Below the pieces are notes generated by a model. That model was not told the DNA's origin, did no database searches, and saw only the letters and a program-made list of their open reading frames with translations. Positions 25,012 through 34,876 of a DNA stretch of 41,997 bases are shown here, one piece after another; position 1 is the stretch's first letter; each line of letters starts with the position of its first letter. Source of the stretch: an uncultured Candidatus Saccharibacteria bacterium (GTDB taxonomy: Bacteria > Patescibacteriota > Doudnabacteria > UBA920 > O2-02-FULL-48-8); assembly GCA_964605735.1 (NCBI GenBank), contig CAZSDS010000002.1:4093-46089 (forward strand). The letters run 5' to 3'. The translations under genes and the position numbers were made by a program.

Positions 25012-25087
25012 TGGTGGACCCTACCGGGCTCGAACCGGTCGCCTCCTGCTTGCAAAGCAGGCGCTCTACCAAATGAGCTAAGGGCCC
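25012..25087 (-). tRNA. tRNA-Ala (anticodon TGC)
   Basis: GGGCCCT...AGGGTCC-ACCA acceptor with the G3:U70 Ala identity pair; anticodon arm CCTGC-TT-TGC-AA-GCAGG. Confidence 0.97.
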
Positions 25088-25124
25088 CACGCTTATCTGC
25101 GCTGAACCTAGCAGATACTTTCAG

Positions 25125-25153
25125 ATTTTACTAAAAAATCGCCTTTTGGTCAA
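25125..25153 (-). promoter_or_regulatory. Sigma70-type promoter for tRNA-Ala
   Basis: TTGACC-17 nt-TAAAAT. Confidence 0.65.
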
Positions 25154-25167
25154 GACTGAGCATGCGC

Positions 25168-25425
25168 TTACTTAAGCGATTCTCCCCCGCCAAAAACCGG
25201 ACCAAGCCAGCTAAACAAAAAGCTTTCCGCATTGAACATATAAAGCATGGCGACTATCACTATAAACAGGCCTGCAATTTTATACAGCAAATACGTACCC
25301 CCAAATCCGCCTGACAGATGGTTTTCAGCCCAGCCAATTTTCCCAAAAATCTGCACGATCTGGAAGTTGTAGCGCATTATCAAAATGCCTGTTGCCACCC
25401 AAACCGCACCCCAAACAAATCTCAT
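25168..25425 (-). CDS. Small membrane protein
   Basis: 85 aa with two or three hydrophobic segments. Confidence 0.7.
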   Translation of the reverse strand: MRFVWGAVWVATGILIMRYNFQIVQIFGKIGWAENHLSGGFGGTYLLYKIAGLFIVIVAMLYMFNAESFLFSWLGPVFGGGESLK

Positions 25426-25510
25426 GTTTTTGTGTTTCTTGGCGCATTCCTCGATTTTGTTGATTGCGCCTGAGGGTTAATTACCTGATTATTATACCCT
25501 ACCGCCAGGG

Positions 25511-25539
25511 TTTACAAAAACCCGACAATTTGGTAAAGT
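25511..25539 (+). promoter_or_regulatory. Sigma70-type promoter for tRNA-Ile
   Basis: TTTACA-17 nt-TAAAGT, 27 nt before the tRNA. Confidence 0.5.
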
Positions 25540-25566
25540 ATTGAGGCATTTGTACCGCAATATTGC

Positions 25567-25643
25567 GGGCATGTAGCTCAGGTGGTTAGAGCGCGTCACT
25601 GATAATGACGAGGTCCCTGGTTCGAGTCCAGGCATGCCCACCA
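25567..25643 (+). tRNA. tRNA-Ile (anticodon GAT)
   Basis: GGGCATG...CATGCCC-ACCA acceptor; CGTCA-CT-GAT-AA-TGACG anticodon arm; GGTTCGAGTCC T-arm. Confidence 0.97.
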
Positions 25644-29997: not shown

Positions 29998-30804
29998 TCA
30001 GACCGAGAGGATGCGCTCAGATTTCTCCGCCTCGGCAAGAAGCTGTTCGTTTGTGAACTTGGGGCGGAAAATCCGGCGATACGGGGAGAACGTTTCGTCC
30101 CAGGGACAGACAAACCGGACATAGTCATATCGCTTTGACGGCTCAATCATGCCAGTCATCACCCTTGTGTAATGAATGATCTGGCAATTCCTGATCCGGT
30201 ACTCGCCGCTTTGGTCCTGACTCTGTGCCAGGAACATGGCTGGCGTAAGCCGTTCCAGTCGAATCCTGAACGCCCACATGACCATGCCATGGCATACGAT
30301 GATGACGCGCATGCCTTCACACTCACGGTGCAGGGTTTGCAATACGCGATCAACCCGGAGGCAAAGCTGGGCCACTGACTCGCCGTTCGGCGGTGTCCAA
30401 TAGAACGGGTCGCGCTGGTAAGCCCTGTATGATGCTTCGTACTTTGCCTGCTTTTCAGCTTCCGGCATGATGTCGAAGTCACCCATGTCGCGCTCACGCA
30501 GATAGAAATCCTGGTCCCAGACGGCGCGGGGCAATTTCAGGTGCGCTGCCGTTTCCATGGCCCGGGCAAAGCCAGAAACCATGTACCTGTCGAATGTGAA
30601 CTTGAAGTTGTTCCGAATCCACTTGCCGGCCTGTTTTGCTTGCTCAATACCTCTGTCAGTTAGCCGGAACTCCGAACTGTGGCGATCCCGGAACTGCTCC
30701 GTGAAAACACTGTCGTCCCCTTTTTCTGAAAGGCTCCGGGCAACGTTTCCCTCTGACTCGCCGTGCCGGACCAAAACCAAATCCAACGGCATTGCCATTT
30801 TCAT
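29998..30804 (-). CDS. Histidine phosphatase (phosphoglycerate mutase family)
   Basis: LVRHGESEGN, LTDRGIEQA, LRERDMG, GES, IVCHG; GGAGG RBS. Confidence 0.93.
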   Translation of the reverse strand: MKMAMPLDLVLVRHGESEGNVARSLSEKGDDSVFTEQFRDRHSSEFRLTDRGIEQAKQAGKWIRNNFKFTFDRYMVSGFARAMETAAHLKLPRAVWDQDFYLRERDMGDFDIMPEAEKQAKYEASYRAYQRDPFYWTPPNGESVAQLCLRVDRVLQTLHRECEGMRVIIVCHGMVMWAFRIRLERLTPAMFLAQSQDQSGEYRIRNCQIIHYTRVMTGMIEPSKRYDYVRFVCPWDETFSPYRRIFRPKFTNEQLLAEAEKSERILSV

Positions 30805-30883: not shown

Positions 30884-30922
30884 CAAAAAAGAGCTTATAA
30901 GATGAAAATCTTACTAAGCTCT
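30884..30922 (-). terminator. Intrinsic terminator downstream of the distal rRNA-trailer copy
   Basis: AGAGCTTA-G-TAAGAT-TTTC-ATCTTA-TAAGCTCT then TTTTTT. Confidence 0.75.
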
Positions 30923-31080
30923 AGTTTGCAAATAAATTATTCCAGAGTGAGCGAACTGATCAGAAATTTATTTCTGATCCAATGTAAGCGAGCGACGGCA
31001 AATAATCCACTCGCCATTTACAAGCACTATATTGGGAATAAGTTTTGCTATGAACCATTCACTTTCGTTCAGGTTCACAG

Positions 31081-31169
31081 CTAATTAACCAATTGTCTAT
31101 CGCCATTGGATGTTTTCTGCTTCGCCTTCGAAAAGACTCGTAAGAAAGATTCTCCTTAGAAAGGAGGTG
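31081..31169 (-). repeat. Direct repeat copy B: 16S anti-SD tail plus trailer
   Basis: 89 bp, 86/89 identical to 33010-33098 by manual alignment; an extra 17-bp block at 31031-31047 equals 32981-32997. Confidence 0.95.
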
Positions 31170-31303
31170 TTTGACGAGGACTTGAGATCAACAAAAGTAT
31201 TAACAATATATATTTTTACAGTTGACCTTATACCTCAACCGCTGTGTGGGTCAAGCCAAAAGTTAAAACCACCTGAAGGTGGTTTTAATACTTAAAAATA
31301 TAT

Positions 31304-31822
31304 TTATTCAGTCCAGGTCAAACTCTCAAAAATCGCTCTAGAGTTATCATTGTTCTTTGCCACAGTTACCGACAATACCTTATCGCCGTTTTGAACGTAA
31401 TAAAAGTCTGTTACGACATCATCTCCCTTAATCACGGCCTTAGATGCAGTTCTGCCGTCCAACTCAGTAGTTGTTACTGTGATATCTTCAGGAGAAGTAG
31501 TAGTAAAAGTGCTCTCAATAGATGATTCAGTAATATCACTCATATTAGCTTCTGAAACACCAAAGATAAATTCAGTGGATCCAATCTCCCTTACTCCCAC
31601 AGCTACAGAATCTTGAGATACTTCAATATCCCCACCTGCTTCAGAAAAACCTCTGACTTCATACTCTTCAGGATACTCAAAAGTATACTGATGCCTAGCA
31701 TTGCTGTAACTATTTGAAAGTTCAACTAATACCTCAGAGCCCTTGTCATCATTTCTATTTACTGTATAAGAGTATGCCGCTACTCCAACAACTACAACCA
31801 AAAGAATAATAAATTTTCTCAT
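31304..31822 (-). CDS. Membrane-anchored hypothetical protein (PsbP-like pattern)
   Basis: TM, YSNARHQYTFEYPEEY, TELDGRTASK; visibly AT-rich. Confidence 0.8.
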   Translation of the reverse strand: MRKFIILLVVVVGVAAYSYTVNRNDDKGSEVLVELSNSYSNARHQYTFEYPEEYEVRGFSEAGGDIEVSQDSVAVGVREIGSTEFIFGVSEANMSDITESSIESTFTTTSPEDITVTTTELDGRTASKAVIKGDDVVTDFYYVQNGDKVLSVTVAKNNDNSRAIFESLTWTE

Positions 31823-31947
31823 GTAGTAATTATCGCTGGCCTTGGATTTGTTTAATGTAGGTTCATTGTAGGTGGAATCACGCTAATTGGCAAACATTGA
31901 CATTAGCCCAAATAAATGCTATCCTATCATATTCAGAAGGAGGCTGG

Positions 31948-32208
31948 ATGGCAGAAAAAACCGCGAGAGTAGACACTAACCAAAAGTCCGAATGCGAATG
32001 CGGAACGATGGTCTATGTGTCAGAATGCTTCTGCGCCGGATGCGGCACACCAAACCCGCACTTCAGCGCGCAGGCATTCAGGCAGGACTGGGGTTCAAAC
32101 GTGGCAACTATGCGGCGCAACAATTGCAGCAAGATGCACAGGGACGCGAAGCGCAACAAGGATACCAATTTCTGCATGCTGTGCGGAACCAACCTCAGGG
32201 CCAAATAG
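31948..32208 (+). CDS. Small Cys-rich, double zinc-ribbon-like protein
   Basis: AAGGAGG RBS before the ATG at 31948; CECG, CFCAGCG.PN, CMLCG motifs. Confidence 0.75.
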   Translation: MAEKTARVDTNQKSECECGTMVYVSECFCAGCGTPNPHFSAQAFRQDWGSNVATMRRNNCSKMHRDAKRNKDTNFCMLCGTNLRAK

Positions 32209-32376
32209 CCCTGACACTGACCGTGGGATACTCTATTAAGGCCCAGGTTCATTTTTTTCAAATGAAAAACCTCCTAGAAAGGATGTGTGTACCTATTCCC
32301 TAAATCTTAGCCTTGGATTGTTTAATGTAGATTTTACATGAGTAATTTAGTGCAATGTATTGCATCAGGAGGCACA

Positions 32377-32631
32377 ATGAGGGAGGTCAGCGCGCAACGG
32401 TACGACGAGATTGAGTACCGAGTTCGAGACTCTGAACTATTCAAAGGCGGGCTCAAGCTTCTCGAACCTGAGGAAATGAAAGCTCGCTTGGCGGCTCTAG
32501 GAGAGGAATTAGGAATTCCCCTGAATGAGTTGCATGCCTTTGTCGCACAAAAAATCTTCGAGTGGAGCAAGGCTATGCAATTCCGACGATTCACTGACCC
32601 ACTGGGCATTCGGCCACACACCGAGCACTGA
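32377..32631 (+). CDS. Small hypothetical protein
   Basis: AGGAGG RBS before the ATG at 32377 (track start 32338); helical amphipathic sequence. Confidence 0.65.
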   Translation: MREVSAQRYDEIEYRVRDSELFKGGLKLLEPEEMKARLAALGEELGIPLNELHAFVAQKIFEWSKAMQFRRFTDPLGIRPHTEH

Positions 32632-32932
32632 GTGGTGGCGTCGACGACCTGCAATTTAGGTCGTCTTTTTTTACGTCCCAAAAAAACTCATTTTGGAATC
32701 TCCGTCATCCAAAAGAAAAAGCCGTGAGTCTCATGTGGAACCCACGGCACAAACCGTATGTCTCTGAGGCAGCATCCAGAATGTACTGAATACTGTTCTT
32801 GACCTCCGGAAACTCTTCCAGGATCCCCGCAAAAAAACATGGAGGTGGAAAGATGTGCTTTCCTGTTTTAAAGTGGTATTTTGACCCGACACGACCATCT
32901 CCTGCCCCCTCTGGGGCTGTTTTTGGGTACAT

Positions 32933-32960
32933 AAAAAGCCTCGCTATCCAAAGCCAGGCT
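32933..32960 (-). terminator. Terminator-like hairpin after the 16S trailer (copy A)
   Basis: AGCCT-GGCT-TTGGAT-AGCG-AGGCT then TTTT. Confidence 0.55.
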
Positions 32961-33009
32961 GGTGCATTTGCACTCAATTTATTGGGAATAAGTTTTGTCC
33001 ATTAAAGGA

Positions 33010-33087
33010 CTAATTAACCAATTGTCTATCGCCATTGGATGTTTCTTACTTCGCCTTCGAAAAGACTCGTAAGAAAGATTCTCCTTA

Positions 33088-33098
<11 letters not shown>
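33010..33098 (-). repeat. Direct repeat copy A: 16S 3' tail plus trailer
   Basis: Contiguous with the 16S gene; matches 31081-31169. Confidence 0.95.
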
Positions 33099-34549
<1,451 letters not shown>

Positions 34550-34756
34550 AAACGAATCTTGCGATTCGTTTATAAATTCAATCTTGCGATTGAATCTGTA
34601 AGAGTTTGCACTGTAATCAGTACAAACTGGCGTCTGACTTCGCTCGAAAGCTACATCAGACTTTGCAACTATTTTTTGTTAAAAGGTCAGCTGCAAAACC
34701 TTTTGTCCGAATACCCTCGGGGGAGGGCATTAGAACAGGGAAAGTATATTATTAAC

Positions 34757-34794
34757 TTTCAAAGAAATTGTTCAATTAACTTATTCCCAATAAA
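34757..34794 (-). promoter_or_regulatory. rrn leader: 5' strand of the 16S processing stem and boxA-like motif
   Basis: TTTATTGGGAATAAGTT (34794-34778) is the exact complement of trailer 32994-32978; TTCTTTGAAA boxA-like at 34766-34757. Confidence 0.8.
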
Positions 34795-34876
34795 CTGCTT
34801 GCAAAGTTTATTGCGGATATTCACTTGTGAAAGGACGCCGCCTTAACCCTAAAGTTTTCTCCTAGCCGTTTTCTGC

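Follow-up and report, generated by a model that had tools for sequence, protein, structure and literature searches.

A probable decayed remainder of integrative elements at the 3′ end of a 16S rRNA gene in Patescibacteria

Site-specific integrative elements favour tRNA and tmRNA genes. The scheme followed by islands and prophages that enter the 3′ ends of these genes by means of tyrosine integrases has been summarised for Islander (PMC4383910): the target encodes a structural RNA, the element carries the 3′ part of the gene so that the gene is regenerated, and the displaced fragment marks the far end. Here we describe a 1.9-kb segment that appears to have entered the 3′ end of a 16S rRNA gene in the same way. 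It lies in a stretch of 41,997 nucleotides from contig CAZSDS010000002.1 (assembly GCA_964605735.1) of an uncultured bacterium of the Patescibacteriota lineage Doudnabacteria. This whole stretch is called the window, and all coordinates are positions in it; the 16S rRNA gene, the repeats, and the trailers are all read on the minus strand. We regard the segment, with a probability of about 0.8, as what decay has left of an integrative element, or more probably of two such elements stacked together, from a Patescibacteria family that targets the 16S 3′ end.

A full-text literature search turned up nothing on the 16S 3′ end as an attachment site for integrases, which agrees with the preliminary description of this segment (made from the DNA letters), where no earlier account of such a target was known, and a 2026 paper on prospecting integrase targets leaves rRNA unmentioned. 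The recombination logic is that of the tRNA-gene islands; the target and the carried processing trailer are new, and the window copy is a decayed member of the family. The likeness to tRNA and tmRNA islands extends beyond the regenerated structural RNA gene and its displaced fragment: in full 16S-tail members the integrase gene stands beside one junction, elements are stacked in tandem, and the core, like anticodon-loop and T-loop sites, overlaps a palindrome that encodes a hairpin. Unlike those islands, 16S-tail elements use the anti-Shine-Dalgarno sequence and the processing trailer, with no tRNA or tmRNA gene involved, and the part that needs restoring is, for the most part, not mature RNA but the trailer strand, whose pairing partner in the leader is located 1.6 kb upstream. 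Their integrase is also different in being Xer-like, with its start codon fused to the T-run of the rrn terminator, and the window copy is without it.

Integrative mobile elements exploiting Xer (IMEXs) use the host XerCD recombinases at dif, with CTX phage as an example. The window segment is like them in being a small element without a recombinase of its own and in the Xer-type recombinase family concerned; however, the 16S-tail site is not dif, and full 16S-tail members encode their own integrase. Elements are also known in rRNA genes, namely, the insertions and introns with homing endonucleases in 16S genes of the candidate phyla radiation (CPR) and the R1 and R2 retrotransposons of animal 28S genes. 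They too exploit an ultraconserved rRNA sequence as a safe, universal target, but they lie inside the mature rRNA, are removed from the RNA or inactivate the gene copy, and spread by homing or retrotransposition instead of by gene-end replacement with a tyrosine recombinase. Closer to the present state of the window segment are the cis-mobilizable elements (CIMEs) of streptococci, which have kept their att sites and lost their integration genes (PMC5704250). Likewise, the window block keeps attL and attR and has lost its integration genes, and CIMEs often share a single att site with other elements in a stack and depend on help to move. They differ in that CIMEs derive from integrative and conjugative or integrative and mobilizable elements and accrete with a conjugative element, whereas there are no conjugation genes here and mobilisation is hypothetical. 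The most fitting description of the insert is that of a decayed derivative, flanked by att sites and comparable with a CIME.

The window contains one complete 16S rRNA gene (Rfam RF00177, 1409.8 bits, model 1-1533) and no 23S gene. A repeat search confirmed the direct repeat from which the preliminary description had started: copies A and B (Table 1) are identical at 86 of 89 positions, their starts are 1929 bp apart, and the match begins at the C of CACCTCCTTT, which lies 10 nt inside the 3′ end of the gene. The bases to the left of the repeat are unrelated (GGAT versus CAAA). A second, decayed 16S gene at copy A was ruled out because similarity is absent to the left of CACCTCC, and no tRNA gene was found at either repeat junction. 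Copy A carries three clustered differences (31116, 31117, and 31119), and its internal hairpin is weaker in folding energy (-16.0 versus -21.9 kcal/mol).

Table 1. Features of the 16S-tail locus, in the direction of 16S transcription
Feature	Position	Strand	Remarks
Leader strand of the long processing helix between rrn leader and trailer	34763..34805	-	inverted repeats; co-fold with both trailers
16S rRNA gene	33089..34550	-	Rfam RF00177
Repeat copy B (attL)	33010..33098	-	last 10 nt of 16S plus first 79 nt of trailer; palindrome CTCCTT-TCT-AAGGAG inside
Element-borne distal trailer: 12-nt spacer plus leader-complementary strand B	32965..33009	-	absent in empty-site strains
Terminator hairpin after trailer B	32937..32955	-	U5; T-run leads into ATG at 32932
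Putative integrase relic, 75-codon open reading frame (MYPKT...)	32705..32932	-	ATG after terminator T-run; frameshifted at 32901; homology to X3 copy ends at 32855
p84, cargo, 84 aa	32377..32631	+	AGGAGG ribosome-binding site; own terminator 32643-32665
Decayed third att core CACATCCTTTCTAGGAGG (32271-32288) plus conserved element-end motif (32294-32333)	32271..32333	-	repeat search
zn86, cargo, 86 aa	31948..32208	+	weak double zinc-ribbon match; promoter-like TTGACA-17-TATCCT at 31897-31925
p172, cargo, 172 aa	31304..31822	-	terminator 31288-31263; hydrophobic N terminus
Right end of element	31170..31236	-	last 14 nt (AAGTCCTCGTCAAA) identical to right end of the integrase-bearing L067 element
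Repeat copy A (attR)	31081..31169	-	orphan anti-Shine-Dalgarno stub plus trailer
Native host trailer: 33-nt side hairpin, leader-complementary strand A, host terminator	30886..31080	-	joined to 16S in empty-site strains
Host flank: histidine phosphatase gene	29998..30804	-	PF00300, E 2.4e-31; contiguous with trailer A in all strains

Both copies had been said to run on into a strand complementary to the rrn leader, and this holds. After a variable spacer, each copy is followed by a 33-nt block (31015-47 for copy A, 32965-97 for copy B; 85% identical to each other), and an inverted-repeat search found this trailer block to be 89% complementary to the leader at 34778-34805. Co-folding with the leader gave -47.6 kcal/mol for trailer B, against -22.3 ± 2.9 for shuffled trailers, and -58.9 kcal/mol for trailer A, against -29.6 ± 3.4. 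In the co-fold each trailer forms a leader-trailer helix of about 40 bp in which the distal last 12 nt of the repeat (AATTGGTTAATT) also take part. The lengths of the side hairpin had been assigned the wrong way round: the spacer of copy A has 33 nt (31048-80) and forms a 9-bp hairpin, and that of copy B has 12 nt (32998-33009) and forms a GTCC..GGAC hairpin. Each copy does have its own terminator, which beyond trailer A is a hairpin at about 30925-30886 followed by U6 (-19.1 kcal/mol, z -5.2). The host terminator hairpin motif of trailer A is also present in L068 and L074, the closest integrase-free relatives. Because of this common motif, and because trailer A is the one joined to 16S in empty-site strains, trailer A is taken as the native trailer. 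At the occupied site, the full-length match to the 16S model and the predicted fold of the trailer B leader helix indicate that the target gene is regenerated.

The 16S-tail site is empty, occupied, or differently occupied among near-identical chromosomes. This was seen in Logan contigs and contig graphs, which derive from short reads and in which bubbles have been popped. Runs X1 and X2 come from a bioreactor, contain 98% of the words of the region, and are probably the source of the assembly; X3 to X6 are compost runs from another study. The compost chromosome is the same as that of the window, apart from about 0.5% divergence in the flanks. One contig of X4 runs directly from 31080 to 33010, skipping 1929 bp, and the depth of the insert there is 0; X5 and X6 have the same empty arrangement. 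An empty site had been among the checks proposed for an integrative element, and it exists, but with 16S joined to trailer A and not, as had been expected, to trailer B. In X3, the flanks have a depth of about 8, the repeat of 13, and the insert of 4 to 5, with two contigs leaving the repeat. The X3 insert resembles that of the window at its ends only and differs in the interior. Its trailer-B-like end corresponds to 32855-33038 with 10 differences and one gap; the trailer is 5.5% diverged versus about 0.5% for the flanks. At its other end, the 36-nt motif (32294-32329) is separated by 6 nt from a complete repeat.

Between the populations, the native trailer region also varies: the compost strains X3 to X6 have T and CCA insertions in the hairpin after trailer A (window 31001-31006).

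For the occupied form, a 1900-bp Logan contig from a public run is exactly window 33039..31140, so both inner junctions have been assembled independently; the outer junctions, for which support had also been sought, are ambiguous in the short-read graph. In the graphs of X1 and X2, the repeat is a single 89-nt node at about double depth, entered from 16S and from the insert end and left toward the trailer B and trailer A sides. The depth in X1 is 42.6 for the insert and 45.3 and 53.3 for the flanks; in X2, it is 43.4 for the insert and 34.7 and 35.2 for the flanks.

Exact scans with repeat-internal sequence found no match in genome contigs or metagenome contigs. A scan with the 16S-end pattern GCTGTCGATGGATCACCTCCTTTCTAAGGAG gave 121 loci, mostly from Doudnabacteria and other Patescibacteria. 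A tyrosine integrase gene (PF00589) starts 195-303 nt after CACCTCC, in the 16S direction, in 13 of the 71 distinct 16S loci with at least 1.3 kb of downstream sequence. In four of these 13 loci (L018, L067, L073, and L091), self-comparison revealed an orphan CACCTCC with a trailer copy 2.0-7.9 kb downstream of 16S. The identity between the copies starts at the C of CACCTCC in all four, as it does in the window, and leftward identity amounts to 0-2 nt; to the right the copies are perfect for 24-114 nt and then continue as diverged but homologous trailers. Some trailer hairpins in the relatives are altered on both strands between the copies. In each of them, the 16S-proximal trailer is immediately followed by an open reading frame of about 320 aa in the same direction (truncated in L073) encoding an Xer-like tyrosine recombinase (PF00589, E 1e-36).

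This integrase family falls below the cutoffs for XerA, XerC, XerD, and IntI and comprises 1408 clusters at E <= 1e-30. When the search was begun from the integrase, L123 and L127 proved to have a full 16S gene ending 205-212 nt upstream. On an 868-kb contig (L126/L129), two orphan units of core, trailer, and integrase lie 13 kb apart with no 16S gene within 21 kb, which shows that elements of this family are stacked in relatives. Orphan anti-Shine-Dalgarno and trailer copies linked to recombinases, the sort of loci that the preliminary description had recommended searching for, thus occur in L018, L067, L073, L091, and L126/L129. These integrase-bearing relatives, the common boundary, and the trailer B helix support its proposal of an element that targets the 16S 3′ end and restores the processing stem.

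The ends of the window insert are those of the family. At the left end is an element-type hairpin followed by TTTTTATG, and trailer B has GCGAGGCTTTTTATGTACCC. In the integrase-bearing loci, the T-run of the trailer hairpin leads into the integrase start (..GAGGCTTTTTATGTA..) in a TTTTT(A/G)TG layout, whereas loci without an integrase read ..AGGCTTTTTAAATTGG.. in place of the T-run and ATG. The ATG at 32932, 167 nt after 33098, has the context GAGGCTTTTTATGTA, and the same context is found in L067 and L035. In X3, the open reading frame that starts there lacks one base (32901) and reads MYPKTAPEGAEMVGSGQNTTLKQESTTFQGESLSA, a family-typical N terminus. Both ends of the X3 peptide match family N termini (MYPKTSLE in P0048 and ..TSFQGESLS in P0080, E 0.001). 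On this short evidence, we read the 75-codon frame as what remains of the element's tyrosine integrase gene after a frameshift and truncation. A similarity of GAGDGRVGS to the integrase motif RGAGEARVGS (E ~0.08) was set aside as probably due to chance because the frame reads otherwise in the sister strain. At the right end, the junction is 84.6% identical to that of L067 over 78 nt, core included.

The decayed third core lies where X3 has a complete repeat: X3 is homologous over 36 nt, and 6 nt later its complete repeat follows. By our estimate, a 14-mer with one mismatch would be expected by chance about 0.0015 times in 4.7 kb. The sequence therefore suggests two stacked units, 32289-33009 and 31170-32270, with their boundary at the decayed third core.

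A motif, GCCTTGGATT(T)GTTTAATGTAG, occurs at 31838-31863 and 32310-32333, each time upstream of a plus-strand cargo gene, and nowhere else in the window. In X3, sequence resembling 32294-32329 and sequence resembling 31864-31890 are joined by this motif, which may act as a common promoter or operator module or mark a junction between cargo units that is prone to recombination.

As had been described, three small genes (encoding proteins of 172, 86, and 84 aa) lie between the repeats, and the 75-codon frame is to be added to them. In the protein collections, p172 and zn86 had only self-matches (for zn86, among 5.8 billion proteins), and for p84 a single homologue (81% identity) turned up, on a 524-nt ENA contig that is unrelated and offers no useful context. 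Pfam, PHROGs, and NCBIfam gave nothing for the cargo proteins beyond the subthreshold zinc-ribbon match of zn86, and with the same collections no replication gene was found in the block. To judge from its N terminus, p172 is likely to be secreted or membrane anchored. The insert contains no known RNA family, and no RNA sequencing runs containing it are listed.

A full member of the family, read in the 16S direction, begins with the core from CACCTCC, followed by its own 16S trailer with a leader-pairing strand and by a terminator hairpin; the T-run of this hairpin leads into the start codon of the Xer-like integrase, and after the cargo the right end abuts the displaced host CACCTCC and trailer. 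By analogy with the tRNA and tmRNA islands (PMC4383910), attP would consist of the right end of the element, the core, and the element's own trailer. Recombination at the 16S end would leave the 16S gene intact and equip it with the trailer of the element, and the host trailer would be displaced downstream as an orphan. The crossover probably takes place within about the first 24 nt of the core, the stretch with the palindrome CTCCTT-TCT-AAGGAG, since identity extends this far in every pair. With the replacement trailer, 16S maturation would continue to work. Bacteria of the Patescibacteria type usually hold a single rRNA gene, and this genome very likely has a single 16S gene; with the helix partner 1.6 kb away upstream and usually no second rRNA gene, a replacement trailer would be needed. 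In the window, the integrase would then have been lost except for its frameshifted 5′ stub and the middle att core would have decayed, in whichever order, leaving three orphan genes with their own promoter-like or terminator-like signals between near-identical 89-bp repeats. The block could still be lost, by homologous recombination between the repeats or through an integrase acting in trans.

Several observations weigh against the interpretation as decayed integrative elements. No integrase was found in the insert or the 42-kb window with PF00589, with tblastn, or with a hidden Markov model of the family in six frames, only the 5′ stub; this bears out the earlier statement that an integrase is lacking and means that the membership of the insert in the family rests on its ends and its context. 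The putative relic is short, and its similarity is statistically weak (best E of 0.001 against 121 sequences). Homologues of the cargo were not found in related elements. The node with two entries and two exits fits an empty chromosome plus a 1929-bp circle equally well. The copy-A differences were found in no Logan contig or indexed run, the index having been built on bubble-popped contigs, and are thus unsupported by any public contig. Finally, the empty-site strains have the copy-B version of the repeat, which does not follow from a crossover near CACCTCC if copy A has stayed unmutated since insertion. The differences, which weaken the hairpin of copy A, fit drift in an orphan copy, and such drift would explain the copy-B version in the empty strains.

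The alternative that survives best is that the block consists of one or two active integrase-less cassettes, inserted and excised in trans by an integrase of the same family whose gene would reside elsewhere in the cell or arrive on another element, with the 16S tail serving as a site of gene capture and accretion. In keeping with such cassettes, the att repeats are wholly or almost intact, strains with about 0.5% flank divergence vary in whether the block is present and in what it contains, relatives have stacked units and arrays, and the middle core in the window is decayed. However, the integrase stub speaks for decay in place and not for a cassette built without an integrase, neither a circle nor an alternative junction was seen, and recombination between the 89-bp repeats suffices to account for empty sites. 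We consider active cassettes rather unlikely and keep to the decayed elements. Equally tentative is the wider proposition that the 16S tail is a general accretion platform in Patescibacteria, at which Xer-like integrases recombine at the near-universal CACCTCCTTTCT core and insert, stack, exchange, and remove elements and also integrase-less units with promoters of their own, like the two of the window; each unit would need a working trailer, as the host has a single rRNA gene.

Much less probable is an assembly artefact, in which an empty chromosome and a 1.9-kb sequence present as a separate circle or elsewhere were threaded together through the 89-bp repeat, possibly via a strain-variant bubble. 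The two-in, two-out repeat in the X1 and X2 graphs, the copy-A differences missing from public contigs, and the departures of the insert-to-flank depth ratio from unity (0.86 in X1, 1.24 in X2) could be so explained. Nevertheless, both libraries show a depth close to 1:1, a replication gene is missing from the block, and the integrated layout with orphan copies is present on long contigs of several relatives; these three points favour integration over a free circle. The absent copy-A differences prove little, as Logan contigs pop bubbles, and if real, they are linked in the contig as only the integrated form allows.

Least credible of all is a local tandem duplication of the 16S trailer followed by gene gain without a site-specific recombinase, since, although no recombinase gene is present and the trailers are homologous over their full length, the boundary at the C of CACCTCC is common to five independent integrase-bearing or decayed elements, the right end is common with L067, the left end carries an integrase start, and at these very junctions another insert is present in a sister strain. 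An integron was rejected: like one, the block gathers small orphan genes with no relation to each other at a single recombination site and is associated with a recombinase in the Xer/IntI branch; unlike one, it has no IntI (the family integrase scores 89 bits against a cutoff of 265), no attI, and no attC or attC-like repeats, and its units have their own promoter-like and terminator-like sites. A homing-endonuclease intron was also rejected.

In three related 16S-tail elements, a second tyrosine recombinase, a paralogue with 38-43% identity to the first, is found 4.6-6 kb into the element: in L067 (+5102..+6022), L032 (+6070), and L050 (+4625), counted from CACCTCC. These may be two-integrase elements or may be stacked elements in which the middle att site can no longer be made out. 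The stacked elements at orphan cores in L129 (5334-6775) and L123 (5433-5789) contain parts of diversity-generating retroelements (bAvd and a reverse transcriptase). The same elements encode a BrnT/CopG toxin-antitoxin pair, ParB, a DNA methylase with a BsuBI/PstI-type restriction enzyme, and AbiEii, by which matches their cargo consists largely of defence and addiction genes. No conjugation genes were seen in the related elements inspected. A LOOT RNA (RF03000, 80 bits) lies at 6494-6611 of L127, within a 16S-tail element. Large internal insertions are known in CPR 16S genes, and related 16S genes measure 2.7-3.7 kb end to end in L004, L033, L073, L101, L113, and others, which accordingly contain such insertions.

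The rRNA operon is fully dispersed in the window. The tRNA-Ala(UGC) and tRNA-Ile(GAU) genes, of the type usual in the spacer, are at 25012-25643, 8 kb from 16S and on opposite strands, with no adjoining rRNA gene. Neighbouring genes in the window include those for Ku, cohesin-dockerin proteins, and type IV pilins, which fit a genome of the Doudnabacteria.

For the assembly of CPR genomes and for binning based on 16S, a repeat of at least 89 bp at the end of the 16S gene calls for caution. The 16S tail contains the anti-Shine-Dalgarno sequence, which is among the most conserved sequences of bacteria, and it sits behind the strongest promoter of the cell. In genomes with a single rRNA gene, an insertion there must preserve 16S maturation, and it is due to this need that the elements would carry a co-evolving copy of the processing trailer. 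The window adds evidence at the level of populations, in that the site is empty, occupied, or differently occupied among near-identical strains, and it exemplifies the decay of such elements into att-flanked blocks without an integrase. If the core alone suffices, integrases of this family would recognise a site in almost every bacterium and could serve as broad-host insertion tools.

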